From UHGV virus genome UHGV-0105325: a stretch of DNA of 48,561 bases. One strand, given 5' to 3'. A program made the position numbers and the translations under genes. Numbering within the stretch: position 1 is the stretch's first letter; each line of letters opens with the position of its first letter. The DNA is from a virus. The notes beneath the pieces were generated by a model. It was given only the letters and a program-made list of their open reading frames with translations, had not been told where the DNA came from and did not search any database. Below are positions 1 through 35,376 of the stretch, one piece after another.

Positions 1-27
1 CAATATAATTACAGTGTACTACCGTAT

Positions 28-55
28 AATTTCATTCCGATCAAAAAGTGAACAA
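28..55. repeat. 28-bp direct repeat (aatttcattccgatcaaaaagtgaacaa), copy near the left window end; second copy at 48524-48551
   Basis: Exact 28-bp identity seen in the sequence. Flanking bases differ between the two copies. The last window bases (ctttgtagta) resemble the region 34975-34988 upstream of the second long repeat, consistent with a permuted circular map. Confidence 0.7.
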
Positions 56-97
56 TTACCCGAAAATACCCCCATCCAACCACAACCACAGGGGTAT

Positions 98-353
98 GAA
101 TTTTACTTTCACAATCAACGACTTAAGCCGCATATCCGAATACCCCCGACATTTTCGCTTCTTCTTCCCTATAAACTATATAAACTATACGTTATGTATT
201 ATACTACATTTATATTATATATTATATACTTTCTATTACTACTAATTACTATTTTATAAGGGTATAAGGGTAATAAGTAGTAAGTAACAGAAAACTAAAG
301 AGTTTTTGATACCCCGATGAAGTACCCCGAACGAGTTTCAACGGGGTGTGTGG
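98..353. repeat. Copy 1 of a ~255-bp (extended ~300 bp) AT-rich duplicated regulatory block upstream of the neck/tail operon
   Basis: About 93% identical to 35064-35317. Contains the 9-bp tandem tataaacta x2, taagggta x2, a TATA-rich stretch, and the hairpin ACCCCGAACGAGTTTcAACGGGGT about 50 nt before the first late gene. Confidence 0.85.
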
Positions 354-365
354 ATACTGGCGCAA

Positions 366-380
366 CGTTGTGTGATAATA
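366..380 (+). promoter_or_regulatory. Candidate extended -10 promoter element (TGtGATAAT) immediately downstream of repeat copy 1
   Basis: TGnGATAAT at about 371-379 with a weak -35. Lies between the repeat and the ATG at 403. Confidence 0.3.
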
Positions 381-402
381 GCTTGACAAATGAGGACACA
401 CT

Positions 403-906
403 ATGTCAGTCAACATCAAAGCGCTGCAGCAAGCCAAACAGGCAATACGTTCGAAACTGGAGCAATACGCTAAAGTCAGTCAGAAGACTGTGACTGTCGG
501 CATCCATTCGGACGCAGGTGAGCATCCTGACTCCGGTATGACAAATGCCCAGCTTGGCGCATTGCTGAATTACGGTAACCCCGATAACAAGTTATACGGT
601 AATCCCGCACCTATCCCGCCTCGACCCTGGCTGATACCCGGCGTACAGAGCGGTAAGCAGGATATCGTGGACACCATCGCTCACGGCGTGGCTAATGATT
701 TACCGCTTGACCAGGTGCTTGAACAAGTGGGCGCATTCGCAGCCGGTGCGGTACAGCAATACATGACCGATTTACAGCAACCGCCAAACAGTGCATACAC
801 TGTCGCTCAAAAGGGTTCCAGTAATCCACTTATCAGCACAGGCGCTTTACGGGCGAGCGTGACGTACAAGGTCACCAACGAAAAACCTGACGAGGGTATC
901 TTATGA
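403..906 (+). CDS. hypothetical virion protein (first gene of neck/tail operon)
   Basis: 167-aa ORF with GAGGA RBS 7 nt upstream. Its stop overlaps the next start (ATGA). No motif recognised. Confidence 0.6.
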   Translation: MSVNIKALQQAKQAIRSKLEQYAKVSQKTVTVGIHSDAGEHPDSGMTNAQLGALLNYGNPDNKLYGNPAPIPPRPWLIPGVQSGKQDIVDTIAHGVANDLPLDQVLEQVGAFAAGAVQQYMTDLQQPPNSAYTVAQKGSSNPLISTGALRASVTYKVTNEKPDEGIL

Positions 907-1256
907 GTCTGTCAATGCGTGGTCATATTGACAACGTGTTTAAATCTGTACCGGCGACACACGTGGGTAAATCTGGCTCACACGTGGACGGTATCTGGAC
1001 ACCCGTGACATCCGCACCAGTTGCATTCATGGTGAACATTCAGCCACTGAACGACAAGGAAATTGATTTCTTGCAACAAGGTGGTCAGCGCATCGTTGAC
1101 CCACGTAAAATATACGTTAACAATGGTGACCTCGACTCAATTGCACTCGATGGTGAATGGGTGTTCCTGGGTCAGCGCTGGAAAGTTATTCGCACCGACA
1201 ATCGCCCGTGGCGTAAATACTGTAAGGTAATCGTGGACCGCTATGACCAACAATGA
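903..1256 (+). CDS. hypothetical virion protein
   Basis: 117-aa ORF translationally coupled to the flanking genes. Confidence 0.55.
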   Translation: MSLSMRGHIDNVFKSVPATHVGKSGSHVDGIWTPVTSAPVAFMVNIQPLNDKEIDFLQQGGQRIVDPRKIYVNNGDLDSIALDGEWVFLGQRWKVIRTDNRPWRKYCKVIVDRYDQQ

Positions 1257-1824
1257 AATCTTTGCGGCTCTCAGGCCGCATATACTCAACGTGACGGGCG
1301 TCAGCGAGTGTATCCTTGCCGACCCCAACGGACCGTCTCCGAACGGCCCCTACGCGTCTGTGCGTCCACGTCAGAGCATTCGTGAACGCGGTCAGGCGAA
1401 CATCATCATGACCGACGGCGCAAATGACACTATCGTGTATGAAATTCGCGCGCAGATTGTCGCATCCTGTGAAATTAATTTCTTCCGTGGTGAAGCAATG
1501 CGGTACGCCGAAATGCTGAAGGAATGTCACAAGCGCCCGGACGTGTGCTGGCCCCTGTGGCAAAAGGGGATTGGATGGGGTGGGACTGAACCTGTTAATA
1601 ACCTGACAGCGCTGCAAGCCAGTAATTTCGAAGAACGGTCACAGATAACCATCAAGTTGTTATACGAGTCGGTCAATACGGTAACTGTGAATAACATTCG
1701 CCGGGTACCGTTCAGCATCGCCGACGGTAACGCCGAAGTCTATTTCGAGAACGGAACGGTCCAATTACGTCACGTGGAAACAGAATCCGGTATACTCTAT
1801 CAATCCGGTGAAATTTCGATATAA
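1243..1824 (+). CDS. hypothetical virion protein (tail-proximal)
   Basis: 193-aa ORF directly upstream of the sheath-like gene. Confidence 0.55.
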   Translation: MTNNEIFAALRPHILNVTGVSECILADPNGPSPNGPYASVRPRQSIRERGQANIIMTDGANDTIVYEIRAQIVASCEINFFRGEAMRYAEMLKECHKRPDVCWPLWQKGIGWGGTEPVNNLTALQASNFEERSQITIKLLYESVNTVTVNNIRRVPFSIADGNAEVYFENGTVQLRHVETESGILYQSGEISI

Positions 1825-1866
1825 TGGACGAGGTGTGCACACTGCAACTTACGAGGACTCGTAAAC

Positions 1867-3000
1867 ATGTTTCCAATTGAACAAATTATCCCCATTACAA
1901 CCCGGATTTCTCCGGCGGGATTAAGTACAGCAAACTTCGCTTCTGCGATGTTGTTTGCTAATAAGACCGAACTCCCGAGCGGCTTCACCAAAGACACGGT
2001 GCGTACCTACTATTCCACCTCGTCTCTCGCCGCTGACTTCGCTCCCACAACCGAGACGTACAAGGCTGGTGCCAAATTCCTTGGCTCCACTCCGGCGGTA
2101 CCGAAACTCACCGTGTGGGGTACCGCGGACGATGATACCGACATCAAAACAACGCTGGCTAAGGCGTTCAACAAACATTACTGGTACTGGACTCTTGTCA
2201 CCAAAGATGTACTGGCGACGGAGGCCGACGTACTGGCGATTGCATCGTGGTGTGAAGAGAACAGCGTCATGTTCCCTAACAGTCAGACCGGTGAAGCCGT
2301 GGTTAAAATTCGTAACCCGGACGCCGATGATGACATCTGTTCGAAGCTGAATAAACTGGGCTATCGTCACGCATTCACCGTGGCTCACGCAACCGACCCG
2401 TATGCGGCCTATGCGCTCATCAAGCATTCTGCCTCGGTGAATTACAGTGCCGATAACAGCACTATTGACACTGAGTTTAAGAAATCTCCGGGTGTTGCCG
2501 CCGAAGACCTGTCCGACACAGAACAGAACGCGATGGTCACCAAACGTTGCGCATTCTACAGCGTGCTTGACCTACAGGGGAGCACCGACAGCGGTCGCTG
2601 GCTGCAGACGTGGTCGCACAGTACCTACGGTGAGTCCATTTCCGACATCGTCGATTTGGACGCGTTTGTGAACTCTCTGCGTGTGGAACTGTACAATACC
2701 ATTGTCAACCAGACCACTAAACTCCCGCAGACTCCGGTTGGTCAGGAAGCGCTCATCGGTGCGGCCAAACGTGTGGGTAGACAATATATTCGCAACCGTT
2801 ATCTCGGCCCACGCAATTACATCAGTCCCGACACCGGTCTGGAAGCGTACACCGAGGGATTCGAAGTGCTGACTAAAGCGACGGATATTCTCGACCTGTC
2901 CGATTCTGACCGCGCGGCACGCAAGTCTGCACCGATTAACATGCGTGTGTTCAAAGCTGGTAGCGTCAGAATCTGTGACGTCATAGTTGACGTTTATTGA
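1867..3000 (+). CDS. tail sheath-like protein (DUF3383-type small sheath)
   Basis: 377 aa, immediately followed by a 138-aa tube-like gene. The order sheath-tube-chaperones-tape measure is typical of contractile tails. Assignment is by context and size, not by search. Confidence 0.5.
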   Translation: MFPIEQIIPITTRISPAGLSTANFASAMLFANKTELPSGFTKDTVRTYYSTSSLAADFAPTTETYKAGAKFLGSTPAVPKLTVWGTADDDTDIKTTLAKAFNKHYWYWTLVTKDVLATEADVLAIASWCEENSVMFPNSQTGEAVVKIRNPDADDDICSKLNKLGYRHAFTVAHATDPYAAYALIKHSASVNYSADNSTIDTEFKKSPGVAAEDLSDTEQNAMVTKRCAFYSVLDLQGSTDSGRWLQTWSHSTYGESISDIVDLDAFVNSLRVELYNTIVNQTTKLPQTPVGQEALIGAAKRVGRQYIRNRYLGPRNYISPDTGLEAYTEGFEVLTKATDILDLSDSDRAARKSAPINMRVFKAGSVRICDVIVDVY

Positions 3001-3013
3001 TGGAGGATGACAG

Positions 3014-3430
3014 ATGTCATTAGAAAATTTTTCCACAAGTAATATGGTGGTTACAATCGGGGGAAGAATTATAACGGACTGGGGTGAGTCTGACCCACCG
3101 TATACCGATGAGCCGATTGACGCGTCAACTGTGTTACGTCGTGGCCTGGGTGGTAATGCTATTCGTCTGGACCGTATCAACCCGGGTCGTCGTGTCACAC
3201 TGAACCTAAACCCTGGTTCGGCTGACTCCGCGTATATTAACGGACTGTTTCAGAGTAAGGCCAACATCGAGTTGACCTATACTCAAATCGGCACACTTGA
3301 CGCCGCTGTGGGCACAGAAGGTGTGATTGTGAATGATGGTCCGCGTGGGCGCGGTGGTCAGACAATTACCGATGACCAGTGGGTTTTCGAGTTCAATTCA
3401 TGGACTGCGACAAAGGGTCCAGCAAGCTAA
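3014..3430 (+). CDS. tail tube-like protein
   Basis: 138 aa, follows the sheath-like gene and precedes a terminator. Confidence 0.5.
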   Translation: MSLENFSTSNMVVTIGGRIITDWGESDPPYTDEPIDASTVLRRGLGGNAIRLDRINPGRRVTLNLNPGSADSAYINGLFQSKANIELTYTQIGTLDAAVGTEGVIVNDGPRGRGGQTITDDQWVFEFNSWTATKGPAS

Positions 3431-3431
3431 G

Positions 3432-3458
3432 TGAAAGGGGCCATCAGGCCCCTTTTCT
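3432..3458. terminator. rho-independent terminator hairpin (aggggccatcaggcccctttt), usable in both directions
   Basis: GC stem plus T-run between the convergent tube gene and the endonuclease gene. Confidence 0.7.
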
Positions 3459-4892
3459 CCACATGTATTTTTTAGTTCCCGAATTTTCCGTAATCAAACA
3501 ACCCGCCTCATCCATCATTTGACGTTGAGTCTTTTTCTTGGAAAATACCGACGGGTCAACCCCTAACTTACTTAGCGTTTTTGGGATGTTAATCTTCCAC
3601 CATTGTTGCCGACTCATGAAACCCACTTTCCGGTGCCATATTCTGAATGATGTGACCGAATCATCAACCAGTTCGAATCCTGAGTTTTCATAACTTGACC
3701 CGTCGAAATAGTCACAATCTACGAACGATTGGCACCATTGCATATTTAGAGCCGCGGCCGCGTGTTTGAACAGCTTGGACTGACCACCTCTGACCATACA
3801 ACTCGTGGCATAACGTACCATATCGAATCCACCCTCAGCAATTTGGTTAAATGTCATAACTGCGACGATTTGACCGGATTTATGGGTGAGTGCGAAATTA
3901 TGTGAGGCCCGAGCATAGCCCTGAACGTGATGTTCAATCAGGAACTTCCGGGCATCTTTGCCGGGGATATTCACAATCTTACAGTCGCGAGCGTTGACTC
4001 TCACATCTTCGGAGTGCCCCGTGGCGTTTTTTATGATTCGCGTAATGATTGGTTTTTTATCTTTCCAGTCTTGTTCTGATATTGATATCAATCTATACCC
4101 AACACTGTTAGTTCTGATACGTTTGTTTTTGTGATATCCCCTCGGTCGTTTCTGCAGGCTGTGCCAGTATGTGCCATTGAATTCTATTGCCACTTTTGAA
4201 GCGTGGTCCACTATGTCGAGTTCTTGAGGTGCGATTAGTGAGCGATTCGAAATGTCAACATCGCCGATTAGCGACTGTATTTCCACTTCGAAACTTGATG
4301 GTCCCACGTTCGCGCATTTGGGGCAACCCACCCCGTAAGCATGCTGAAACGCAATCGGTGTGAAGTCTCCGTGTTTTTCGCATGTAACTACAATTTTGTC
4401 GCCAGATTTGGTGTATGATGTTTTGTCATAGGTATATGGACTACCACTGTCTTTCATTTTTTGGACGAATGATTCCGTATCGTATTTCCCACCTTGTTTG
4501 CACTTGGGACAACCTTGCCCCGTGGTGCAGTGTGCAGATGGAGTCTGGTAGAAATCTCCATGAGTGGGACAGGTGATTCTCATCTTTGTACGGGTGTCAA
4601 CATATGTTTCGGGGTGGTACTCATATTTATTTCCGTGTTTCTCTTTGGCGCGGTCGAGCATTTCAGAAACAGACTTCCGTTTGTTCGTATTTTTAATTTT
4701 TTTTGCACATTCTGGGCAGTTGCTGCCATTAGTGTGGTCTGCTGCAATCTGTAAGAAATCCCCGTGAATGCGGCATTTTATCCGAACTGTGTTCGCCTTA
4801 CCCGTGTAAACTACCCCCGTGTAATCGTACCTGTCACCGTGTACAGATTTGGCCTTATTGACGTATTCTTCGGTTGTCAACTTTTTGGACAC
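3444..4892 (-). CDS. homing-endonuclease-like protein: 3 zinc-ribbon repeats (CxxHGxF...GCPxC) + C-terminal Vsr/PD-(D/E)XK-like nuclease domain
   Basis: GTG start with GGGAGGAG RBS. Three copies of the repeat unit at aa 7-64, 72-133 and 138-195. C-terminus AIEFNGTYWHS...RIRTNSVGYRLISISEQDW resembles the Vsr/DUF559 core. Family assignment is by resemblance. Confidence 0.6.
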   Translation of the reverse strand: MSKKLTTEEYVNKAKSVHGDRYDYTGVVYTGKANTVRIKCRIHGDFLQIAADHTNGSNCPECAKKIKNTNKRKSVSEMLDRAKEKHGNKYEYHPETYVDTRTKMRITCPTHGDFYQTPSAHCTTGQGCPKCKQGGKYDTESFVQKMKDSGSPYTYDKTSYTKSGDKIVVTCEKHGDFTPIAFQHAYGVGCPKCANVGPSSFEVEIQSLIGDVDISNRSLIAPQELDIVDHASKVAIEFNGTYWHSLQKRPRGYHKNKRIRTNSVGYRLISISEQDWKDKKPIITRIIKNATGHSEDVRVNARDCKIVNIPGKDARKFLIEHHVQGYARASHNFALTHKSGQIVAVMTFNQIAEGGFDMVRYATSCMVRGGQSKLFKHAAAALNMQWCQSFVDCDYFDGSSYENSGFELVDDSVTSFRIWHRKVGFMSRQQWWKINIPKTLSKLGVDPSVFSKKKTQRQMMDEAGCLITENSGTKKYMWRKGA

Positions 4893-4957
4893 GTTCTCCT
4901 CCCTCTCATGATGACCAACGTGTTTCGATTGAATAATACACGCGCTACATAGTCAAA
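3457..4957 (-). mobile_element. free-standing endonuclease gene cassette bounded by imperfect 43-bp direct repeats (3414-3456 and 4958-5000)
   Basis: The repeats aagggtcc(a/g)gcaag(c/t)taa(g/a)tgaaaggggcc(a/g)tcaggcccctt differ at 4 positions. The left copy is the 3' end of the tube gene plus its terminator. The cassette is AT-richer than its neighbours. Confidence 0.45.
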
Positions 4958-4977
4958 ACAAGGGTCCGGCAAGTTAA

Positions 4978-5002
4978 ATGAAAGGGGCCGTCAGGCCCCT
5001 TA
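4978..5002. terminator. hairpin aaaggggccgtcaggcccctt (duplicate of the tube-gene terminator)
   Basis: Near-identical to the 3432-3458 hairpin. Lies downstream of leftward gene 5004-5546. Confidence 0.5.
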
Positions 5003-5003
5003 G

Positions 5004-5546
5004 TTATTTCTGGTCAAGCATGTCGGACTGATAACGTTCGAGCTTGACGTATTCCTGCACAGACCATCCCATTGCTCTAAAGTCCGATGCCTCAGCAGCA
5101 TCAGTGGAGTAAGTGGTCCTTCTACCACCTGGAACTGAAATCCCGTACAGGTCGGCGACTGGCTTAATCTGCGCAACTGGTGTGGTACCCTCACGAATGA
5201 GGGTACCATCGACTTTACCCCGCAGCATGGCGGCTCGGCAGGATTCATCCTCGCCAAATATAGCCGCCTCCATTACATCAATAGCTTGCGATGGCGAGTG
5301 TGAATATTTATCGAAGGTTGGACCTTTGATGCGCTGTGCGATTTTGAACAGTCGTTTTTCTTGCGCGTGATACAAATCACTTAGTCGCTGATATCTCTCA
5401 TCGGGCTCACTACCCATCGTCGCCAGGAGCATCTCATACGCTTGAAGCGTGTACTCACCACTCATCGACAACTGACCTTGCTCATCTTTTATTTTGCACA
5501 GTCGGTCGATTTGTACAATCAGGTTTTCTTTTGTCACTCTTCTCAT
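5004..5546 (-). CDS. hypothetical protein
   Basis: 180-aa ORF with GGAGT RBS. Second gene of the leftward cassette driven from the promoter at 5850-5886. Confidence 0.6.
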   Translation of the reverse strand: MRRVTKENLIVQIDRLCKIKDEQGQLSMSGEYTLQAYEMLLATMGSEPDERYQRLSDLYHAQEKRLFKIAQRIKGPTFDKYSHSPSQAIDVMEAAIFGEDESCRAAMLRGKVDGTLIREGTTPVAQIKPVADLYGISVPGGRRTTYSTDAAEASDFRAMGWSVQEYVKLERYQSDMLDQK

Positions 5547-5827: not shown

Positions 5828-5849
5828 TTTGCATCTCCTGTTGTTGATA

Positions 5850-5886: not shown

Positions 5887-5944
5887 ATTGATTGATGATT
5901 TCGTCAAGTGTACACTGTAACGACTAACAACCGGAGAAATAACA

Positions 5945-6319
5945 ATGTCACTCATTAAAACTTTTACCGCTGGCGATATCACCGTGAACGCCGCGATGCC
6001 TTCCGCAATTGAGCAGGATGAACTGTTATCCCTGGTGAGCGCACAGTTTATTGCGCACGCTGCCAATGTTTACAAAAACGGCGGTGAACTCGGTGTCAAA
6101 GATGTAACACTGTTGCTTACCGCTGTACCCCATCATATCAAGCAACGCATTGCTGAGGTGCTCCTGAGCAAAGCGATGACAGCGGGTACCAACACGAAAA
6201 TCACAGTGAATGATTTCCCCGGTAAGATGATGACGCTGAATACTCTGCTGGCCGAATTGTTTCTGTGGGTTTACTCTGATTTTTTCGATTACGTGCAAAA
6301 CGCAAACAAAGACGAGTAA
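5945..6319 (+). CDS. hypothetical protein (possible tail assembly chaperone by position)
   Basis: 124-aa ORF between the tube gene and the tape-measure gene. Confidence 0.5.
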   Translation: MSLIKTFTAGDITVNAAMPSAIEQDELLSLVSAQFIAHAANVYKNGGELGVKDVTLLLTAVPHHIKQRIAEVLLSKAMTAGTNTKITVNDFPGKMMTLNTLLAELFLWVYSDFFDYVQNANKDE

Positions 6320-19879: not shown

Positions 19880-21403
19880 TCAACAAATGGTCATTATGTA
19901 ATTGTTCACATCACGCTGATAAAGAGATTTTACTTCGTCCGTCTCAAGTCCCAACATTGTGTCTTTCTCCCATTCCGCACAAATAGATTCAACTAACGAA
20001 TCATATTGTTCGGGGTAGTACATGACGGCCCCGTCAGTATTCGATTGCGGGATAATCATGTCTGGAACTCGCGTTATCAATCTATCAATCAACATTGCCA
20101 AACAAAGTTGCCCCGTAATGGTGATACTCAGAAGACACTTGTGGTCGCAGAATGGGCTGAATTTACTCCCCATGTTCCCGAATGTGCCGTTGAGGGCGAG
20201 TTTCAATGCGGCATCAACTGTTTTATCTCCCGCTCGCTTAGCATCACGGCGACGAATGAACAGTTGTTCGTATACATCACAAAAAGTTTCACTAAGGTGT
20301 TCCGGATAGTACCTGTTCTTTATACTAATGGACGGGTACATGCTTGTAACATCTTTATTTTTCAATAACTTACCGTTGCCGGAATGCACAACGTAGTTCG
20401 GAATACTACTGTGAATACCTCCCAATCCGAACGAATATTCGACACCATCGACCACGACGGTCATATCACTAAACACACCTTTTGTGGTCAGCAATTCGTC
20501 CTGCTGTTTCTTTGTGAGTACAACCCCACGAATGCGTTCCAGAATTTGATTGAACTCCGGTCGTTCGAATTTGATATAAGGGGGAATGCAATCTGCGAGA
20601 GCAATACGTTCACGAATGGTTACCCCGGAGCAATCTACCCCGGCCTTTTCCAGTTCGTGAACGAATATATCTTTGCCGATTTTTGTATCGGCGTGGTTCA
20701 TAAAGTTACGTCCGTATTGCTTTGTCAGTTCCTCGCGGAAATGAATTTTGTCGAGTGAACGTACAAAGAATTTAAGTGTTTCGCGAACGTCGTGCTTGTT
20801 GTATGCGATGAGAATGTCTTTCTGTGTATCGTCCAGCATCATTCCGACCAGGAATGGCAGGTCTTTTACGTTAGGGGACTGCATACCCACTTCCAACGCC
20901 TTCAGACTAGTGCGTCGGGCTTTATTATCGAAGTGGTTTATCTTGTACAGGTCAATCTGCTCGAAAATCTGATCGCGGTCCCATATAATTTCTGGCCACT
21001 GACCTTCGGGCTTAATCTGTGATTGCGCTTTTGCGTAAATCTGTTCCAGCGTACAACCCGGTGCATTGACCACGTAGTGCAGCACCGGATAGTCGAATGC
21101 CAGGTTATTAAATCCAATCCCACGGGCCATACTACGTCCCAGGTTGAACACAAATTCGATTAATTGCGGCTGCTCGTTTTTGCGGTCACTGATTTCGAAG
21201 ATTAACTCCATACCCGTCGCAGCGTGAATAAATGAGGCGGTAAATATATTCGGATATGTCTCGATGTCCCACCCCCAGTCCCGTGGGTCCAGTGGTGCAA
21301 TACTGGAGAACGCCGAATCAGCCCCACAGTGAGGGCAATTGTGGAGGTCAGCGGGATAATTTTTACCGCAAGTTGCATCCTCACATTTCGATAAATAGTG
21401 CAT
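19880..21403 (-). CDS. family-B DNA polymerase, N-terminal exonuclease + palm part (507 aa)
   Basis: N-terminal CxxC zinc finger. Exo I DIET, Exo II NNLAFD, Exo III YNKHD. Motif A DVTSMYPSI, motif B KLALNGTFG, motif C-like NTDG. The ORF ends 55 aa after motif C, i.e. before the expected KxY/thumb. Confidence 0.7.
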   Translation of the reverse strand: MHYLSKCEDATCGKNYPADLHNCPHCGADSAFSSIAPLDPRDWGWDIETYPNIFTASFIHAATGMELIFEISDRKNEQPQLIEFVFNLGRSMARGIGFNNLAFDYPVLHYVVNAPGCTLEQIYAKAQSQIKPEGQWPEIIWDRDQIFEQIDLYKINHFDNKARRTSLKALEVGMQSPNVKDLPFLVGMMLDDTQKDILIAYNKHDVRETLKFFVRSLDKIHFREELTKQYGRNFMNHADTKIGKDIFVHELEKAGVDCSGVTIRERIALADCIPPYIKFERPEFNQILERIRGVVLTKKQQDELLTTKGVFSDMTVVVDGVEYSFGLGGIHSSIPNYVVHSGNGKLLKNKDVTSMYPSISIKNRYYPEHLSETFCDVYEQLFIRRRDAKRAGDKTVDAALKLALNGTFGNMGSKFSPFCDHKCLLSITITGQLCLAMLIDRLITRVPDMIIPQSNTDGAVMYYPEQYDSLVESICAEWEKDTMLGLETDEVKSLYQRDVNNYIMTIC

Positions 21404-24132: not shown

Positions 24133-25041
24133 TCACTCCCCCAAATGCGCTTTAACACGTGCCACGAACGGACCGATTTTATCCGGATGGGCGTTCAGTT
24201 CCTGCACCGACGACATGCCGTCCTGCGCCAGCAGCGTGTTCACTGTTGCCACATCAATCTTACCGTGACGCTCGGTCAGGAAGGTCATGAGGCGCGGGAA
24301 GTCCCATGTAGTTACTTCCGGTACCGGCGGTGCAACAACTACCGGCGGTGGTACAGGCAGTGGTGGAATACCCGCAACGGTTTGCTCAGTTACCACATCT
24401 ACATCAGTGTGGAAATCATCACCTGAGGGTGTTACAGGTGGTTCCAGCATCTTGTTGGAGGCTTCGATGAGTTCGTCGACTTCTTCCCGTGTCGGTTCGC
24501 TAATTTCCTCCCCCTCCCCACCACATTCAACCGGATATTGTAGGTCGGCTTTAATCATGCTCACGTAGTCGGACCATTCCAGTTCATCCATATCCTTCGG
24601 CTTACGACGCAGACGCCACGTACCGTCCGCATTGAGCGCCTTACTGGCGGAGTGAATACGCTCGTCCCACGGTGTACCGGTTGAGTCGCTGGTGGGTGGC
24701 GTTTGATCTTCATTGTCCACCATTGGTGCGGACAGCGACTCGACCTGTTGAGCGGTGGTGTCAACTTCCGGCTCTTTACGTTTACCATGTAGTTCGTCAC
24801 CTTCAAAACGCAACGCATCCATCATTTGCGGCGCGGCTTGCATTAATTCACCAGTGGCACCATTGAGACGCTCCAGCGCGGCAGTCGCTTCGCTCGTGTC
24901 AATGTTCAATTTATACGACAGTTCACCGACGGTCTTACGTGGCTCAGCACCATGCGCCAGTGCCATTTCTTCCAGTGCTTTACCAAACGCACGCAGTGCA
25001 ATGTGGTCGTCGTTCGGGATGGTTAAGGTGATATTACTCAT
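24133..25041 (-). CDS. acidic Pro-rich early protein carrying the TPWDERIH module
   Basis: First leftward early gene (GGAGG RBS). Low-complexity acidic linkers. Contains GTPWDERIHSASK...DMDELEWSDYVSMIKA, homologous to the module in ORF 18696-19289. Confidence 0.55.
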   Translation of the reverse strand: MSNITLTIPNDDHIALRAFGKALEEMALAHGAEPRKTVGELSYKLNIDTSEATAALERLNGATGELMQAAPQMMDALRFEGDELHGKRKEPEVDTTAQQVESLSAPMVDNEDQTPPTSDSTGTPWDERIHSASKALNADGTWRLRRKPKDMDELEWSDYVSMIKADLQYPVECGGEGEEISEPTREEVDELIEASNKMLEPPVTPSGDDFHTDVDVVTEQTVAGIPPLPVPPPVVVAPPVPEVTTWDFPRLMTFLTERHGKIDVATVNTLLAQDGMSSVQELNAHPDKIGPFVARVKAHLGE

Positions 25042-28706: not shown

Positions 28707-28711
28707 CCAGT

Positions 28712-28745
28712 TGACCACTTCGTCAACCTGTGCCATACTGCAACA
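28712..28745 (+). promoter_or_regulatory. promoter with palindrome variant (TTGACCacttCGTCA); -10 CATACT
   Basis: Immediately upstream of the TetR-like HTH gene. Confidence 0.6.
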
Positions 28746-28768
28746 AATTACCTAATGGAACCGAAATT

Positions 28769-29047
28769 ATGAGCAAAGAACATATTCTGGAAGTAGCTTA
28801 CACGATAGCACAGCGCGACGGCTTTGGTAATCTTACTCGCGATGGTGTGGCGGCTGAGGCTGGCGTGGCGATGGGGTCAGTTAACCACCACTGGGTTAAG
28901 ATGTCCGCACTTCGTGAAGCAGTGATGCAACGGGCAGTAGAAGAAGAAAACCTCGAATTGATTGGACAGGGAATGGCGCTGGGTGATAGCGTTGCCAAAT
29001 CCGCGCCACTGGAGCTACGCACCCGCGCGCTGATCACCCTGCTTTAA
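28769..29047 (+). CDS. short TetR-family-like HTH protein (92 aa, DNA-binding domain only)
   Basis: ILEVAYTIAQRDGFGNLTRDGVAAEAGVAMGSVNHHW resembles the TetR N-terminal HTH. The upstream ATG at 28730 lies inside the -10, so the start is set at MSKEHIL. Confidence 0.5.
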   Translation: MSKEHILEVAYTIAQRDGFGNLTRDGVAAEAGVAMGSVNHHWVKMSALREAVMQRAVEEENLELIGQGMALGDSVAKSAPLELRTRALITLL

Positions 29048-29069: not shown

Positions 29070-31427
29070 ATGACACATATGAATCCCCCTGTGCAGGGGG
29101 CCGATTCCCTGCACTTTATCGTCTGCAAAACAGTACCTTCACAGAAGAAGCCCGGACGCACGGAGAAGATGCCGTGTAATGCTGCTGGCGATGTGGTCAG
29201 TCTGCACGTTGCTGACCGCATGACTCACGCTCAGGCGGTTACGGCGGCTTCTGCACTGGGTGAGTCATATCGCCCCGCGGTTATTCTTACGGGTGACGGA
29301 CGTTTCTGCGTGGATATCGACGGTGCGCTGCAGGACGACAACACCTGGTCGCCGCTTGCGCTGGAGTTATGCACCACTTTTGCCGGTTGCTACGTGGAAG
29401 TGAGCAACAGTGGTAAAGGTCTGCACATTTTCGGTTATAGCCCGTCCATCCCGGAACACACCTGTAAAAATATTCCGCTACACATCGAGCTGTATACCTC
29501 TGACCGTTTCATTTGTCTGGGAAGTGGTGCGCAGGGTGACATGATGTTTAACGCATCCGCACCGCTCAATATCGTGGCCGCACGTTATTTCCCGCAGACC
29601 GAGCAAGTTACGGCGACGGAATGGACCACAACTCACGCTGAAGGTTCATGTCCGATTGAGGACGATGTGAAACTCATCGAAAAAGCCTGTTCGAGTAAAG
29701 GTGGTGTCGCGGCTGTTTTCGGTGGTAAAGCAACATTCAAAGACCTGTGGACGCGTAATGTTGAGGTACTGAGTGATGCGTATCCGGATGAGGACCGCGA
29801 GTATGACGGGTCAAGCGCTGATGCAGCGTTAGCCCAGCATCTGGCGTTCTGGACCGGTGGTAACTGTGAACGTATCGAACGCCTGATGCGCCTGTCCGCC
29901 ATGGTACGTCCCAAATGGGATAGTCACAAATCGTACATGCAACGTACCATTCTGGGCGCTTGCGCCCGTCAGACAACTTATTACAGTGTCGGTGCACCGA
30001 TTGAACTGGTGACCCCTGCTCAGGTTGTTGAGACTGGTGCACCGGTTATCCGCAGTGGCTATCAGTTTATTGGTGGCTCACAGCTTGTTGACCACTTCAA
30101 AGGCTGCGTGTATGTGGCAGACAGTCACCGCATTCTCACGCCTAACGGTCAGATGCTGAAGTCTGAGCAGTTTAATGCAATGTATGGTGGGTATGTGTTT
30201 GCGCTGGATGACGGCAATGAAAAAACAACAAAAAAAGCTTTTGAAGCGTTCACCGAGAATCAGTGCATCATGTTCCCGAAGGTTGACCGCTCGACATTCC
30301 GTCCGGACCTGTCACAGGGTGCCATTATTGAGGAAGATGGCCTGCGTCATGTCAACGCATACGTACCGGTGACGGTGGCGAGCATCCCCGGAGATGTGAC
30401 ACCTTTCCTCACTCATCTAGCCAAACTGTTACCCATCGAGCGTGACCGTGAGATTCTGTTGTCATACATGGCAGCGTGTGTGCAGTACAAAGGGACCAAG
30501 TTCAAATGGGCACCATTGCTGCAGGGTGTTGAAGGTAACGGTAAAACACTGTTCACACTGTGCGTAATGGAAGCGGTCGGTTCACGTTACAGCCACATGC
30601 CGCCAGCGCAGGAAATTGGCGAGAAGTTCAACGCATGGTTATTCGATAAAATATTTATCGGCGTGGAAGATATTTACGTTCCGGAGCAGAAACTTGAACT
30701 GATTGAAACACTAAAGCCGATGATTACCGGTGAGTATCTTGCTAAACGTGCGATGCAACAGGACCAGGTAATGCACCGCCTGTGCGCTAACTTCATGTTT
30801 AACAGTAACCACAAAAACGCCGTGCGCAAGACCGCTAATGACCGCCGCTTTGCTATTTTCTACACCGCGCAGCAGGAGCATATCGACATTGTGCGCGACG
30901 GTATGGGTGGCGACTACTTCCCTAACCTGTACGACTGGCTCAAACGTGGTGGTGGATTTGCAGCCGTGACGCATTATCTGGAGAATTACTCCATCCCCGC
31001 ACAGTTTAACCCGGCGACACATTGTCAGCGTGCACCAGAGACCAGTAGCACCCACGAAGCAGTGACAGCATCACTCGGCAGCGTTGAGCAGGAAATAATG
31101 GAAGCAATTGACGAGGGTCGCCAGGGCTTTGCAGGTGGCTGGGTGAGCAGTAAGGCACTGGACAACCTGTTACGCCAGATGCGCGCTGATCGCACTGTAC
31201 CAGTGGGTAAACGTCGTGACATGATGCGGTCATTGGGTTACGACTGGCACCCTGCGCTCAAAGATGGACGTGTGAATAACGTGATAATGATTGACGGTGG
31301 TAAGCCGCGGTTGTACATCAAGATTGGACACATTCACGCTAACCTCACAAATGCGGCAGACGTGGCGCGCCATTATGCGGCGGCACAGGGTGATACAAGT
31401 ACGATGGCCTTTGCAGAAACCAAATAA
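29070..31427 (+). CDS. primase-helicase (phage/plasmid P4 / D5 family, SF3 helicase C-terminus)
   Basis: 785 aa with Walker A GVEGNGKT and Walker B-like IGVEDI. The N-terminal primase-polymerase-like region and D5_N-like middle are assigned by resemblance. Confidence 0.65.
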   Translation: MTHMNPPVQGADSLHFIVCKTVPSQKKPGRTEKMPCNAAGDVVSLHVADRMTHAQAVTAASALGESYRPAVILTGDGRFCVDIDGALQDDNTWSPLALELCTTFAGCYVEVSNSGKGLHIFGYSPSIPEHTCKNIPLHIELYTSDRFICLGSGAQGDMMFNASAPLNIVAARYFPQTEQVTATEWTTTHAEGSCPIEDDVKLIEKACSSKGGVAAVFGGKATFKDLWTRNVEVLSDAYPDEDREYDGSSADAALAQHLAFWTGGNCERIERLMRLSAMVRPKWDSHKSYMQRTILGACARQTTYYSVGAPIELVTPAQVVETGAPVIRSGYQFIGGSQLVDHFKGCVYVADSHRILTPNGQMLKSEQFNAMYGGYVFALDDGNEKTTKKAFEAFTENQCIMFPKVDRSTFRPDLSQGAIIEEDGLRHVNAYVPVTVASIPGDVTPFLTHLAKLLPIERDREILLSYMAACVQYKGTKFKWAPLLQGVEGNGKTLFTLCVMEAVGSRYSHMPPAQEIGEKFNAWLFDKIFIGVEDIYVPEQKLELIETLKPMITGEYLAKRAMQQDQVMHRLCANFMFNSNHKNAVRKTANDRRFAIFYTAQQEHIDIVRDGMGGDYFPNLYDWLKRGGGFAAVTHYLENYSIPAQFNPATHCQRAPETSSTHEAVTASLGSVEQEIMEAIDEGRQGFAGGWVSSKALDNLLRQMRADRTVPVGKRRDMMRSLGYDWHPALKDGRVNNVIMIDGGKPRLYIKIGHIHANLTNAADVARHYAAAQGDTSTMAFAETK

Positions 31428-31449
31428 GCCCTTCGGGGCTTTTTTTTTG
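31427..31449 (+). terminator. rho-independent terminator gcccttcggggc + T9
   Basis: Canonical hairpin plus U-tract. Confidence 0.8.
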
Positions 31450-31458
31450 CAATTAGTA

Positions 31459-31492
31459 TTGACGAGTCCGTCAAGGTGGGTTATCTTTAACT
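31459..31492 (+). promoter_or_regulatory. promoter with palindrome TGACGagtcCGTCA; -35 TTGACG, -10 TATCTT
   Basis: Same geometry as the family. Drives the acidic-protein operon. Confidence 0.65.
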
Positions 31493-31520
31493 CATCGGAA
31501 CAACAACAGAGGATAGAGAG

Positions 31521-31751
31521 ATGAAAACGGGTAGCGATTTGAAAATGGCTTTAAGAGATGCCGTAAATTATTCTTTTGTAGGCTGCGCAGATGCAAGAGA
31601 AACATTCCTGATTGCACAAAGTGTGATTGAGTTTTTTTGTGCAATTGGTTTGAGTGATGAAGAATATGTAGAAATTTTATCGAATTGTGGCGGTTCAGAT
31701 GCTGAAACAGATGACGCAATCGATCGTTTAATTGAGGAATTTAAGCAATGA
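31521..31751 (+). CDS. small acidic protein (possible DNA-mimic / anti-restriction candidate)
   Basis: 76 aa, strongly acidic C-terminal half. First gene of a freshly initiated early transcript. Confidence 0.5.
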   Translation: MKTGSDLKMALRDAVNYSFVGCADARETFLIAQSVIEFFCAIGLSDEEYVEILSNCGGSDAETDDAIDRLIEEFKQ

Positions 31752-31921
31752 AAAACATTATCAGTCATCACAAACTGTCTGACCTGCTGGGTAATATGAC
31801 CGAGGTTCAGGCGTTGAACACACTGTCACGTATGCGTGCGCAGGCTGACCGGGACGGACTGTGTGTCACTCGTCTCATTGTTGAAGGTAAAGTGCGGGAA
31901 CAGTGGATATGGAAGCACTAA
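31748..31921 (+). CDS. 57-aa hypothetical protein
   Basis: ATGA-coupled to the previous gene. Not in the ORF track. Confidence 0.4.
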   Translation: MKNIISHHKLSDLLGNMTEVQALNTLSRMRAQADRDGLCVTRLIVEGKVREQWIWKH

Positions 31922-32256
31922 GTTATTGTCAGCTGATGGAGCGCTGTTTAGCGGCTGAGGCGCGGGTGGTGGAACTGGAGTCCCGCACTGTGAAGCTGCC
32001 AGACGAATTATCGGGGGAAACATTACTCGATAATGCCAGTGGAATCGACCTTGTTTATTCCGATGATACTGGAGTATTGGAGTACACGAATATCAATGGG
32101 TGTTTTGTCAAAGTTACTGCACCACCAGATAAAGTAATCAGATTTAGATTTAGCAATAAAGGCATATACATAAGACTTGTAGACAGAGTTAAAACCCATG
32201 AACACGCGGGCATAACTATTGATTTTCCTAAAAACTATAAGGATTTTATATGGTGA
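31903..32256 (+). CDS. hypothetical protein
   Basis: 117-aa ORF. Confidence 0.45.
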   Translation: MDMEALSYCQLMERCLAAEARVVELESRTVKLPDELSGETLLDNASGIDLVYSDDTGVLEYTNINGCFVKVTAPPDKVIRFRFSNKGIYIRLVDRVKTHEHAGITIDFPKNYKDFIW

Positions 32257-32299
32257 ATATGCACATTATTTCCGTTGATGACATCAAGTGGGAGGCTGA

Positions 32300-32599
32300 G
32301 TGAAATCAGTATTGTTCGCCCTGGACGGTGTACTGCGGGATGCGCAGGGCGAACCAATTAAGGACAATATCGCGCTCGCAAGGGCGCTGTACTGTGCGGG
32401 TCACGATGTGCTGGTGACCGGTCCACGTGATGCGTATGAATGGTTACGCAAGCACGATGTGACATTTGATGACCTGTTAGCCGGTCGTCACATTACGATT
32501 GACGCCACAAAACTGATGTTTGCGGTTGTCAATGATGAGATTATGGCGCACGCGCTAAAATGCGCAGGTGTGCATACCTGGAGATATGAAAATGCGTAA
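32300..32599 (+). CDS. hypothetical protein
   Basis: 99-aa ORF with GGAGG RBS. Confidence 0.5.
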   Translation: MKSVLFALDGVLRDAQGEPIKDNIALARALYCAGHDVLVTGPRDAYEWLRKHDVTFDDLLAGRHITIDATKLMFAVVNDEIMAHALKCAGVHTWRYENA

Positions 32600-32882
32600 A
32601 TTACTGTTCTGTCTGATGCTGTGCGGTACTGCTAATGCAGCTGTTACTGCTGAGACAAATGAATCACAGGTTGCTAACCTGCTCTTTAACGGTTGTAGCG
32701 CTCAACGTGCGCAAATGGGTGTGCAGGAAATGATTAAACAGGCTAACCCGGGCGGCAATCCTGTGGCGACCGACCTTATCATCAAAGGTTACAAGTTCGG
32801 CATTGACTACCCGAATGTTGGATGTAACCAGTTCTTTACGGTTGTTATTGACCAGTTAGTTAAAAGCCGGAGCAAAGTGTAA
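32586..32882 (+). CDS. secreted small protein (signal peptide)
   Basis: MKMRKLLFCLMLCGTANA signal sequence with GGAGAT RBS. Confidence 0.5.
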   Translation: MKMRKLLFCLMLCGTANAAVTAETNESQVANLLFNGCSAQRAQMGVQEMIKQANPGGNPVATDLIIKGYKFGIDYPNVGCNQFFTVVIDQLVKSRSKV

Positions 32883-34006
32883 TGAGTATACTGACTGACG
32901 AGAAGTTACTGGCCGACGTGACCGCAGGGATGAGTGGTCACGCTATTGCGAAAAAGTACAGCATGAGTCCCGGCAACATTAACCGCCGCATTAAACGTCT
33001 CGGTGCGCGCGGTCTGGGTCACGGTGGTGATGTGTCCCGCTTTGTGCCGGACGGTTACAAGGTGAAAGGTACATCGTCACTGGTGAAGGAGGACGGGACG
33101 GTAGCGCTACAATGGGTCAAGACTGATGTGGATGTCGAGCGTCAGTTGAAAATGATGCAGGAAGCGATTGCGGCGCTTACAGCGGATATTAAGCCAGTTG
33201 AGTTACCCGGGTTTACCAGACACCCCACTGCGGAAAACCTTTGCAACCTGTACACTGTGAGTGATTTTCACCTGGGGATGCTGGCATGTCTGGAAGAGTC
33301 CGGCGAGGACTGGGATATCAAAATAGCGGAGAACATGTTTGTTAACTGGTTCAGCGCTGCCGTTGAGATATCACCGTGGTCACATACCGCCGTGGTGTCA
33401 CTGCTGGGCGACCTGATGCACAGTGACTCACTGGCACCGGTAACCCCGGCGAGCGGACATGTACTGGATGCGGATAGCCGCTATTTTAAAATGATTCAGG
33501 TGACAATGCGCATGGTGCGCCGGGCGATTGAGATTGTCGCGCTGAAACACCCGCAGGTGCACATCGTCGTATCGCAAGGGAATCACGACGAGACAGGTAT
33601 GTTGTGGCTAACCAGCGCGCTTGAGATGATGTATGGACACGATGACCGTGTAACTGTGGACACATCGCCGGACGTGTTCAAAATGTTCCGCCACGGCGAC
33701 ACGGTACTCTTTTTCCACCATGGTCACAAAGTGCGATTTGACAGTATCGAGTCGGTGATGGTTTCCCGGTTCCGCCGCGACTATGGTGAGACAAGTTACG
33801 CATACGCCCACGTGGGTCACCTGCATCACCAGAAAATTGTTGAGAGTAACTGTATGGTGGTTGAACAACACCGCACGCTGGCGGCTAAGGATGCGTATGC
33901 GGCCCGGGGTGGATGGTTCAGTGGGCGTTGTGCCAATGTCATTACATATCATAAGCAATACGGTGAAGTTAGCCGTCAGTCAATCAGTCCGGAGATGTTG
34001 AAATGA
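32882..34006 (+). CDS. HTH-domain + calcineurin-like metallophosphoesterase fusion protein
   Basis: N-terminal HTH-like ~50 aa. Downstream phosphoesterase motifs SDFHLG, GDLMH, GNHD, HHGH, GHLHH in canonical order. Confidence 0.55.
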   Translation: MSILTDEKLLADVTAGMSGHAIAKKYSMSPGNINRRIKRLGARGLGHGGDVSRFVPDGYKVKGTSSLVKEDGTVALQWVKTDVDVERQLKMMQEAIAALTADIKPVELPGFTRHPTAENLCNLYTVSDFHLGMLACLEESGEDWDIKIAENMFVNWFSAAVEISPWSHTAVVSLLGDLMHSDSLAPVTPASGHVLDADSRYFKMIQVTMRMVRRAIEIVALKHPQVHIVVSQGNHDETGMLWLTSALEMMYGHDDRVTVDTSPDVFKMFRHGDTVLFFHHGHKVRFDSIESVMVSRFRRDYGETSYAYAHVGHLHHQKIVESNCMVVEQHRTLAAKDAYAARGGWFSGRCANVITYHKQYGEVSRQSISPEMLK

Positions 34007-34209
34007 GTGACAAGTACAGAGTGGTAAGTGTAATTCGTTATACTGTTTTTGGAGATGCAGTTAAATGTCCAGCAGTGCAAGTTAGAGTTGGTTATTTCTG
34101 GTGGGTAACACTGGCGCATTGCGAGAATGTGAAACAAGCTCTAACTTATATCGAAAATGTTAAGAAGCACAAGAAAGATAAAATATTAGGTGTTGTCACT
34201 GAAGTATGA
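34003..34209 (+). CDS. hypothetical protein
   Basis: 68 aa, coupled to the upstream gene. Last gene of the rightward early arm. Confidence 0.45.
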   Translation: MSDKYRVVSVIRYTVFGDAVKCPAVQVRVGYFWWVTLAHCENVKQALTYIENVKKHKKDKILGVVTEV

Positions 34210-34211
34210 AT

Positions 34212-34243
34212 AAAAGGCCCGCTAAATGCGGGCCTTTTATTCA
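34212..34243. terminator. bidirectional terminator aaaaggcccgctaaatgcgggcctttta
   Basis: Hairpin flanked by an A-run and a T-run, between convergent genes. Confidence 0.75.
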
Positions 34244-34245
34244 TT

Positions 34246-34386
34246 CATCGACTCTGTTAACTTTCGTATCGCAACCTATCATTTGATGAAACACCCATGG
34301 AGCAAATTTACCCAATCCAATACCCGTTCTTTCGGAGATGTTCCACACCATTGACCAAATGAATTTCCAAAGATTTAATTTCATTT
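34246..34386 (-). CDS. 46-aa hydrophobic micro-protein
   Basis: GGGAG RBS. ATG overlaps the stop of the zinc-ribbon gene. Uncertain. Confidence 0.3.
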
Positions 34387-34388
34387 TA

Positions 34389-34967
34389 TTATCTCCCACA
34401 GTTGCGACATTTGCCATTTGCTACATAGCGTTCTGCAATAATATTACAGTGCTTGCAAGGCTCATACGGAGTGTACCAACGTTTACCGTCAGCGATGGCC
34501 TGCTGGCGCGGTGATTTGATTTTAATGACCCCAACGTGGATTCCTGATTCACTCAGTAACAGGGCGTTTTTCATCGTCTGTAACTGCTCATTCAAAACGG
34601 AAATATTATGCTCAATCATTGCGATGTTCTCACGCAGTGCGTCAACCTCACCAGCAGTGTTAACAATGGCTGGTTTTGGTTTTTTCCATTCCCCCGTCAT
34701 GCGTTGTTCGGTTAAGCAGAAAACACATTTACCAGCAGTGTTACGGACGCCCGGATGTCCACATTCGCTGTTCGGTTTCTTCTGTACCCTCCATGAGCGG
34801 CCATCGCTAAGACCGTCGAGAACTTTCTGATAGAGTTCGTTGCGTGCAGGAAGACCCATGTTTTTCGCTTTCACAAAATCATGGTGGTCATGAAGTGCAC
34901 AAATACTACACAATCCTGTTTCTTTAAATTTTGTAGTGCCGTGACAATTATCTCTGAGGTGAATCAT
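34389..34967 (-). CDS. nuclease-less zinc-ribbon protein (3 Cys4 ribbons separated by a coiled coil)
   Basis: AGGAGAGA RBS. Ribbons CHG..GLCSIC, CGHPG..GKCVFC and CKHC..GKCRNC resemble the repeat unit of ORFs 3444-4892 and 41425-42228. Own TTGACC-18-TATAGT promoter at ~34995-35026. Confidence 0.6.
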   Translation of the reverse strand: MIHLRDNCHGTTKFKETGLCSICALHDHHDFVKAKNMGLPARNELYQKVLDGLSDGRSWRVQKKPNSECGHPGVRNTAGKCVFCLTEQRMTGEWKKPKPAIVNTAGEVDALRENIAMIEHNISVLNEQLQTMKNALLLSESGIHVGVIKIKSPRQQAIADGKRWYTPYEPCKHCNIIAERYVANGKCRNCGR

Positions 34968-35063
34968 GTTTCTCTCCTTTTGTAGAGTATATACTATAAA
35001 ACAATAGAGAATTACGGGTCAATACCTCATTTTACCCCGAAATACCCGAGGTATGGGGGTGGC

Positions 35064-35317
35064 GAATTTACTTTCACAATCATAGGCTTACGCGCATAAC
35101 CGAAAACCCCGTACATTCTTCCCTTCTTCCCTCTTATAAACTATATAAACTATACATTATGTATTATACTACATTTATACTATATATTATATACTCTCTC
35201 TTACTACTAATTACTATTTTATAAGGGTATAAGGGTAATAAGTAGTATAGTACTGAAAGGTAAAGAGTTTTTGATACCCCGTTGACTACCCCGAACGAGT
35301 TTTAACGGGGTATGTGG
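35064..35317. repeat. Copy 2 of the ~255-bp AT-rich duplicated regulatory block, upstream of the terminase/head operon
   Basis: About 93% identical to 98-353, including the hairpin ACCCCGAACGAGTTTtAACGGGGT. Confidence 0.85.
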
Positions 35318-35376
35318 CAATGACGGTACAGTCATGGTAAAATCGTGGCATTAGAGACAATAGCGTGGGGGCCAAC

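Follow-up and report, generated by a model that had tools for sequence, protein, structure and literature searches.

An AT-rich block duplicated ahead of the packaging/head and neck/tail modules of Jedunavirus genomes, and its possible role as a shared control region for a distinct promoter class

The virus genome UHGV-0105325 carries an AT-rich block of about 300 bp twice, each time immediately in front of a rightward run of virion genes, and the question raised by this arrangement is what the repeated block does. The window analysed here, meaning the whole 48,561-bp stretch of DNA, is a complete, circularly closed Jedunavirus genome of the JD001/KpV52/KpV79 group of Klebsiella myophages, to which it shows 92–94% identity over the head genes; its ends join without loss, and the KpV79 sequence is continuous across the same junction. 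One copy of the block, here termed copy N, precedes the tail-completion/Neck1 gene (403-906, phrog_222), and the other, copy T, precedes the small terminase gene (35377-35835, Terminase_2). The head module lies between the two copies, which are separated by 13.5 kb, and the genes downstream of both encode packaging and virion functions, copy T heading the packaging/head module and copy N the neck/tail module. The reading favoured here, held with moderate confidence, is that the block is a shared control region for a distinct, probably late, class of promoter and is bound by a protein at its GGGGTA sites.

A preliminary description of this DNA, made from its letters, had reported the two copies as about 93% identical. 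The duplication itself is real, with an identity of 88.6% (98-353 against 35067-35317, 254 alignment columns, E value of 6e-86) and ungapped segments of 90% identity over 167 nt and 94% over 31 nt. It is not an artefact of assembly, a possibility the same description had raised, since about 10% of positions differ between the copies and independent genomes also contain the pair: the search of other phage genomes that had been proposed, conducted with a 256-nt block query, found 155 places in 71 independent phage records, with at least two places in every record listed. These records include those of Jedunavirus phages, the Peatvirus PEAT2 (73% identity) and Acinetobacter phage LAPP1, and the IMG/VR matches all fell on contigs of the Jedunavirus-related phage group. 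The position of the blocks directly 5' of the two genes was also borne out, with the respective ATG codons lying 50 nt past the end of copy N and 60 nt past the end of copy T, and the sub-features listed in the description (the C/T tract, the two copies of TATAAACTA, the TA-rich run, the two copies of TAAGGGTA, the hairpin and the -10 elements) were all found in place. The parts of copy N, read from the sequence and a motif map, are as follows.

56-97, plus strand: left motif cluster, with TTACCCG at 56-62, ATACCCCC at 66-73 and an inverted GGGGTAT at 91-97
113-125, plus strand: exact integration host factor (IHF) consensus, AATCAACGACTTA, one of the two matches to WATCAANNNNTTR in the window
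140-170, plus strand: third ATACCCCC site at 140-147 and a polypyrimidine tract at 152-170
170-187, plus strand: two copies of TATAAACTA
168-267, plus strand: TA-rich core with 17% G+C, the most AT-rich 100 bp of the genome
236-283, plus strand: imperfect palindrome, TTACTACTAATTACTATTTTA / TATAAGGGTAATAAGTAGTAA, around a direct pair of TAAGGGTA at 257-264 and 265-272
309-353, plus strand: right cluster, with ATACCCCG at 309-316, GTACCCCG at 322-329, an inverted CGGGGTG at 342-348 and TGTGG at 349-353
371-379, plus strand: promoter N, extended -10 TGTGATAAT with its hexamer at 374-379, followed by a ribosome-binding site, GAGGA, at 392-396 and the ATG at 403

Copy T is built in the same order.

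35017-35060, plus strand: left edge, with GGTCAA at 35017-35022 (the -35 element of the leftward promoter of the zinc-ribbon gene), TACCCCG at 35033-35039, ATACCCG at 35042-35048 and an inverted GGGGGT at 35055-35060
35078-35135, plus strand: IHF-like AATCATAGGCTTA (one mismatch) at 35078-35090, ACCCCG at 35106-35111 and a polypyrimidine tract at 35116-35135
35135-35152, plus strand: two copies of TATAAACTA
35134-35233, plus strand: TA-rich core with 18% G+C, the second most AT-rich 100 bp of the genome, with runs lacking G at 35112-35160 and 35162-35224
35202-35247, plus strand: imperfect palindrome with 20-nt arms (80% complementary) around two TAAGGGTA sites at 35222-35229 and 35230-35237
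35274-35317, plus strand: right cluster, with ATACCCCG at 35274-35281, TACCCCG at 35287-35293, an inverted CGGGGTA at 35306-35312 and TGTGG at 35313-35317
35335-35343, plus strand: promoter T, extended -10 TGGTAAAAT with its hexamer at 35338-35343, 20 nt after TGTGG, followed by the ATG of the small terminase gene at 35377

The evidence that ties this block to the promoters is its spacing. Homology between copies N and T stops at TGTGG, which in copy N stands at the -35 position, and in 45 of 53 copies exactly 20 nt separate TGTGG from the -10 hexamer, across three unrelated families of spacer; at the N sites where it was identified, the -10 element is invariant. In distant relatives, the last GGGGTA is found 25–27 nt before an extended -10 of the form TGnTAnnnT. 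A TGn-extended -10 close to TATAAT is present at both promoters and at all related copies with an identified promoter, and the earlier remark that both promoters lack a good -35 hexamer was correct, the best match being 4/6. The block is a conserved cis-element belonging to both promoters and no chance repeat, which supports the shared regulatory platform suggested in the preliminary description. Its suggestion of an UP element does not fit, as the positions from about -40 to -75 are taken up by the motif cluster, which is rich in G+C, the AT-rich part of the block being more distant from the promoter. No promoter resembling the sigma-70 type was detected within the block.

The promoters that follow the blocks also stand apart from those found elsewhere in the genome. 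A 16-bp palindrome, TTGACG-N4-CGTCAA, occurs at 14 sites in the window (allowing at most one mismatch), against 0.28 expected. The sites begin at the following positions.

5869, 5892, 10567, 18701, 22831, 25089, 25146, 27335, 28711, 31459, 39203, 41219, 42892 and 48485: TTGACG-N4-CGTCAA sites, 16 bp each

In most of these, TTGACG serves as the -35 element, CGTCAA lies within the 17-nt spacer, and a TAnAnT or CATACT -10 follows, with examples in both directions. Since nearly all other operon starts carry this type, the rightward N and T promoters can be assigned, from their sequences, to a separate regulatory class located at the heads of the packaging/head and neck/tail modules. No rightward promoter was recognised before the head protease/capsid operon (42861) in the region 42833-42910, where the sole promoter-like element is a leftward TTGACG-N4-CGTCAG promoter; transcripts of this operon may come from promoter T, by read-through over ~3 kb of leftward genes.

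Several other promoter assignments were considered and set aside. The two copies of TATAAACTA, replaced by TATAAATA in PEAT2 and LAPP1, were considered as T4-type late promoters and had been described earlier as iterons; they are lineage-specific, being absent from pKp383, MEW1 and the distant relatives. No sigma-like gene comparable to gp55 is present in the KpV79 annotation. TGGCA at the T site was also considered as a sigma-54 -24/-12 promoter and rejected because the spacing and the GC dinucleotide are unsuitable.

The element enriched in the block is the GGGGTA/TACCCC motif. It was observed 27 times in six diverged blocks against 1.2 expected; for TACCCCG the window has 17 occurrences and an expectation of 4.6, and GGGTA is densest in the two blocks, with 8 occurrences per 300 bp against 0.78. 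Each block has eight to nine GGGGTA/TACCCC sites, arranged as an inverted pair at the left, a direct pair at the centre and, at the right, a cluster in which the final site coincides in part with the -35 position. In copy N, the longer word AATACCCCC is directly repeated at 65-73 and 139-147. The block also has a predicted IHF site, exact in copy N and with one mismatch in copy T; the consensus WATCAANNNNTTR has two matches in the window, one of them that at 113-125, and ten in 10.5 kb of related blocks against 0.43 expected, at varying positions.

If the favoured reading is correct, the block would constitute a complete control region set between divergent promoters, and its rightward output would be a host sigma-70 extended -10 promoter without a usable -35. 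One sequence-specific protein, most plausibly encoded by the phage, would occupy the GGGGTA(T)/(A)TACCCC(G) sites, and this bound protein together with DNA bending would set the activity of both rightward promoters together, by activation or by repression. IHF and the flexible TA-rich palindromic core, which would be easily bent or melted, may assist the bound protein. The two promoters would then form a separate temporal class, probably late, relative to the TTGACG-N4-CGTCAA promoters.

Two neighbouring genes encode candidates for the binding protein.

34389-34967, minus strand: zinc-ribbon protein of 192 amino acids, with three zinc-ribbon-like CxH...CxxC modules and a central helix of ~37 residues
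48131-48430, minus strand: AP2-like protein of 99 amino acids, adjoining copy N, with a TTGACG-N4-CGTCAA promoter at 48485-48500

Both blocks occupy divergent intergenic regions, between two divergent promoters. The zinc-ribbon gene has its own promoter, TTGACC (35022-35017) and TATAGT (34998-34993) with an 18-nt spacer, which abuts copy T; the preliminary description had this gene starting inside the left edge of the copy, and its start at 34967 falls outside the repeat as there defined, to the left by about 100 nt. In every T locus read, among 38 related loci, the zinc-ribbon gene adjoins the T block and is transcribed away from it. The family comprises about 28 clusters, is confined to this phage group, and has a strongly conserved C terminus, SPRQQAI..G.KWY.P..PC.HC...ERYVANG.C..CG. 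Its structure was modelled confidently (predicted local distance difference test score of 85.6), and no Pfam match was obtained at E values up to 10 except a chance coiled-coil. On its conserved position, this protein is the leading candidate for a block-binding regulator. The AP2-like protein had no direct sequence match in Pfam or the PDB; its remote homologues carry Pfam AP2 domains, some together with Arm-DNA-binding or NUMOD1 domains, so that it appears to be a stand-alone AP2-like protein and is the second candidate regulator. Its promoter, TTGACG...TACACT (48500-48472), is separated from copy N by 65-bp repeats; in PEAT2, LAPP1 and KLPPOU148, which are without these repeats, the leftward N promoter directly abuts the block. 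A TetR-like protein (gene 28730-29047), whose gene is preceded by the TTGACG-N4-CGTCAA site at 28711, is more likely to be tied to that promoter family, possibly as its regulator.

A number of observations weigh against the favoured reading. The 300-bp AT-rich palindromic layout is more elaborate than known phage late-activator sites and is also origin-like. The structural operons at 5945 and 10576 have ordinary promoters of the other class. A ~95-nt insertion separates the right cluster from the promoter in 8 of the 53 copies, at either site, and the motif site at about -41 is therefore not indispensable. Fold searches with the zinc-ribbon protein returned no informative neighbour and no recognisable DNA-binding fold, and the AP2-like gene is absent at the N position in LAPP1 and in a distant relative (locus L048), so it is not universal.

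Functionally, the block most resembles the -35-less late promoters that are served by a protein bound to an upstream dyad, as in P2/P4, phi29 A3 and Mu C. The late operons of P2 and P4 share an upstream dyad with a 12-nt spacer located ~50–55 nt before the transcription start, have a poor -35 and are read by host sigma-70, and their late activators, Ogr and Delta, are small zinc-binding phage proteins. Here the inverted ACCCCG-N12-CGGGGT (324-347 in copy N, 35288-35311 in copy T) likewise has a 12-nt spacer and, if transcription starts 7 nt beyond the -10, has its centre at about -50; the block is also adjoined by a zinc-ribbon gene. The P2 dyad is TGT-N12-ACA, in contrast to TACCCCG/CGGGGTA; the block extends over ~300 bp with eight to nine sites and an AT-rich palindromic core in place of a single dyad; Pfam gives no Ogr/Delta match for the zinc-ribbon protein next to the block; and the insertion variant moves the dyad ~95 nt away. 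At phi29 A3 (activated by p4) and the promoters activated by Mu C, a phage protein acts on a -35-less late promoter from upstream inverted repeats with bending of the DNA, and the phi29 region has a divergent early promoter under its control as well. The -35-less promoters with upstream inverted motif sites described here are similar, but no homologue of p4 or C was recognised, and the number of sites and the AT-rich core are much larger. Because the motif and the protein both differ, the block does not belong to the P2/P4, phi29 or Mu families. The T4 middle promoters offer a further likeness, in that a strong extended -10 is combined with a factor-binding site (the MotA box) that replaces the -35 near -30/-40; the motif here is a different one, no MotA or AsiA homologue is present in the annotation, and there are only two such promoters per genome.

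The alternative that survives best is that the blocks are replication origins, or an origin and its cis-acting partner as in P4 ori/crr, which is possible but rather unlikely. In this case GGGGTA initiator sites would flank an AT-rich unwinding element, the sites would be recognised by the primase-polymerase/superfamily 3 (SF3)-type helicase (29070-31427) or another phage protein, and the promoters would be auxiliary. The composition argues for it: the 100-bp segments richest in A+T are, by a wide margin, those of the blocks (17% and 18% G+C, the next segment having 29%), and each block includes a 63-nt run without G followed by a 38-nt run without C (197-259 and 250-287 in copy N). The core is an imperfect palindrome, with 21-nt arms in copy N (236-256 and 263-283, 81% complementary) that form the best-conserved stretch across all copies, and motif sites are found in both orientations on both sides of it; repeated sites of this number around a core of 17–18% G+C are what an iteron-type origin would have. 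The enrichment of IHF consensus sites is also consistent with an origin, as would be the easier melting that divergent transcription at either side should bring. An NrS1-1-like primase-polymerase that includes a DUF5906 helicase domain is found in relatives, and the insertion variant indicates that displacement from the promoter by ~95 nt is tolerated. The origins of SV40 and papillomavirus, P4 ori/crr and herpes simplex virus (HSV) oriS/oriL have inverted initiator motifs around an AT-rich palindrome, divergent promoters and related copies, with two related elements in HSV and P4; the block is similar in form, and this phage encodes a primase/SF3-type helicase. The strict register to the -10, in contrast, is a promoter-like property, and an origin would leave unexplained both this exact 20-nt spacing across unrelated spacers and the end of homology at the -35 position. 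The copies are also found only at the heads of virion-gene modules, in the same relative orientation. Cumulative GC skew reaches its minimum near 25,000, where the divergent early promoters are located, and at neither block; skew in this genome is dominated by gene orientation and was discarded as an indicator of origins. A dual-purpose element of a new kind is unlikely as well: here an origin-like AT-rich palindromic platform, present twice per genome and read at GGGGTA by a hitherto undescribed zinc-ribbon family, would link DNA unwinding or replication with the firing of both -35-less virion-gene promoters, as a fixed late "enhancer".

Very unlikely is an RNA leader, with a promoter inside the TA-rich region and the TACCCCG/CGGGGTA arms forming alternative hairpins or an anti-termination-like element. 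The preliminary description had proposed a structured leader and a hairpin with a 6-bp stem and a 12-nt loop. The hairpin is present, but it is just one pairing among the alternatives available to three arms (in copy N, TACCCCG at 310 and at 323, and CGGGGT at 342), and the pairing of arm 1 with arm 3 is more stable (-15.7 and -17.4 kcal/mol); this pairing joins 311-321 to 337-347 in copy N (11 nt, 91% complementary) and 35274-35283 to 35304-35313 in copy T (10 nt, 100% complementary). Every right cluster can form a hairpin, of -11 to -20.8 kcal/mol with z-scores of -0.15 to -3.5; a small number of base changes would preserve an RNA pair (G-C to G-U) or are compensatory, the latter in loci L042 and L052, and would allow a structural role; and the annotators of KpV79 predicted promoters within the TA-rich part. 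As evidence against a leader, the partner of arm 3 is arm 1 or arm 2 depending on the lineage, pairing beyond the motif amounts to 10 bp in some clusters and is nil in others, and some clusters fold no better than shuffled sequences. Folding of the whole region was likewise no better than shuffles (243-402 on both strands and 35208-35376; z-scores of -0.6 to -0.85). Rfam 15 gave no match in the window at the gathering score, with only sub-threshold chance matches in 34960-35400, where copy T was searched permissively. RNAalifold found no consensus for 16 right clusters, in an alignment that was poorly registered, its unequal loop lengths misplacing arm 3. A leader is unlikely for the mapped -10 elements because the hairpin lies upstream of them, and no sigma-70-like promoter from which it could be transcribed was detected in the block, the conserved extended -10 being downstream. 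What is constant across lineages is the sequence of the motif, which recurs outside the hairpin at the left end and centre of the block while the pairing arms change, and for this reason binding sites of a sequence-specific protein (consensus approximately ATACCCCG) fit better than a single conserved RNA or DNA structure. The hairpin behaves like a set of inverted GGGGTA motifs and belongs to a larger inverted repeat of motifs that resemble binding sites.

It is highly improbable that the blocks are pac sites for the small terminase, with the motif clusters and IHF site flanking the cutting region as in P1 pac or SPP1 pacL/pacR. Copy T lies directly upstream of the small terminase gene, and its short repeated motifs combined with an IHF consensus recall P1 pac, SPP1 pac and lambda cosB, where clusters of short repeats and an IHF site are also found just upstream of that gene. 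The difference is the second, equally conserved full copy 13.5 kb away before the neck gene in every genome, which a pac site does not need; the reading fits copy T only and does not explain the precise promoter spacing. Headful packaging from a pac site would agree with the lack of fixed termini found in the Jedunavirus IME346 (PMC9007800). No publication describing the block was found, and that statement on IME346 was all that searches of the literature on Jedunavirus promoters, transcription and termini returned. Record and contig ends that fall within the block reflect assembly breaks induced by the repeat: many metagenome assemblies (IMG/VR loci L006, L010, L015, L022 and others) end inside the blocks, as pieces of ~35 kb, corresponding to the genome minus the head module, and of ~14 kb, corresponding to the head module, and the GenBank records of KpV79 and KpV52 start midway through copy T. 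Assemblies evidently break at this repeat often.

The conservation of the block extends beyond the phages in which it can be detected at the nucleotide level. Distant relatives were reached through the neighbouring zinc-ribbon family, at 24–39% protein identity, and the T sites of eleven phages and the N sites of three were read. Their nucleotide sequence is largely diverged and the order of elements is unchanged, including the right cluster and a left TACCCC...GGGGTA pair equivalent to that of copy N. The order from left to right is given below.

First to third: a left TACCCC...GGGGTA inverted pair; a further ACCCC site; a pyrimidine-rich stretch
Fourth to sixth: a TA-rich core (minimum of 15–27% G+C per 100 bp); two direct GGGGTA(T); AAGTAGTAGTAATA
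Seventh to ninth: often an exact IHF consensus; ATACCCCGATGGTCTACCCCGG and then an inverted GGGGTA; TGnTAnnnT 25–27 nt further on

One of these N sites (L048) and one T site (L112) come from a single contig, indicating that the duplication is ancient and predates the split of these lineages. An alignment of 14 copies, and then of 44 distinct copies, showed the left and middle parts to exist in several interchangeable versions, and a stretch of ~115 nt (236-353 and 35202-35317) to be kept in all. Identity between N and T within a genome ranges from 53 to 93% and is not systematically above that between genomes; concerted evolution was set aside on this comparison, in which fixed-length extraction was disturbed by the insertion variant. 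The copies with this variant include L033 (the N site of pKp383), L035 (the T site of MEW1), L041, L044 and L045. They have a different hairpin (ATACCCC...GGGGGTAT), an extra TAAGGGTAT and the ~95-nt insertion, the end of which resembles the CCGAAAACCCCGTACATTCT of the block. As the variant is at N in some genomes and at T in others, it moves by recombination.

The least probable reading is that the blocks are recombination linkers at module boundaries, akin to T4-type mobile cassettes and without function beyond ordinary promoters: sub-variants do swap between N and T sites, the N–T identities point to ongoing exchange, and the blocks flank the 13.5-kb head module, yet the order of elements and the motif survive in otherwise diverged relatives, the core is among the best-conserved stretches of the aligned copies, and the motif enrichment and fixed promoter spacing point to selection on the sequence itself. 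The PeSL cassettes of T4-type phages (early promoter plus stem-loop) are similarly repeated, promoter-containing intergenic cassettes that recombine between positions; they differ in being short, numerous and early, and their closer analogue here is the TTGACG-N4-CGTCAA family.

A scan of bacterial genomes for ATACCCCGNTGNNNTACCCCG gave 58 scattered matches in unrelated taxa, against a chance estimate of our own of ~69 (17 fixed bases, 596 Gb), and so gave no indication of copies in prophages or hosts.

Jedunaviruses are widely isolated for Klebsiella phage therapy, and no publication was found on the timing of their gene expression. The present analysis provides a map of two promoter classes, one of which has only two members, a large conserved control region and a motif of 6–8 bp. 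If the block is a late switch, its cis-element is identified here and candidate regulators are suggested by position; if it is an origin, or is also one, the architecture of an origin is defined for a phage group with NrS-1-like primase-polymerases. The block also offers a handle for engineering or attenuating these phages, and in practical terms the two blocks split short-read assemblies into pieces of ~35 kb and ~14 kb.

A tandem repeat adjoins the block at the N site only.

48524-48561, plus strand, continuing at 1-55 across the circular junction: 65-bp tandem repeat

The preliminary description had noted a 28-bp element at 28-55 and 48524-48551. It is an exact repeat restricted to the N site, as described, and proves to be the partial second unit of this longer repeat. 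There are 1.4 units in the window, 2.4 in KpV79, pKp383 and MEW1, and none in PEAT2, LAPP1 and KLPPOU148, and each unit contains a perfect TATAAT without a matching -35. In MEW1, the ribosome-binding region that precedes the neck gene, immediately downstream of promoter N, contains a run of ~10 G residues (L034, ~955-970; position ~3958 of the record). A paper on MEW1 reported an intergenic poly-G length variant at position 3958 (PMC11633184), which appears to be this run.

An open reading frame of 81 codons with a GTG start (14-259, plus strand) runs through copy N. It was rejected as coding on the grounds that the frame is broken by indels between copies and that its composition is extreme, and the "hypothetical proteins" annotated over the block in some GenBank records are probably spurious calls. 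The software-predicted "promoter" features in the KpV52 and KpV79 records are the only annotations of the block itself. Outside the blocks, two TACCCCG sites 15 nt apart (GGTTACCCCGGAGCAATCTACCCCGG; 20621-20642, plus strand) are found inside the leftward DNA polymerase gene; this pair resembles the right cluster of the distant relatives, has no inverted partner nearby, and may reflect chance or coding constraint.

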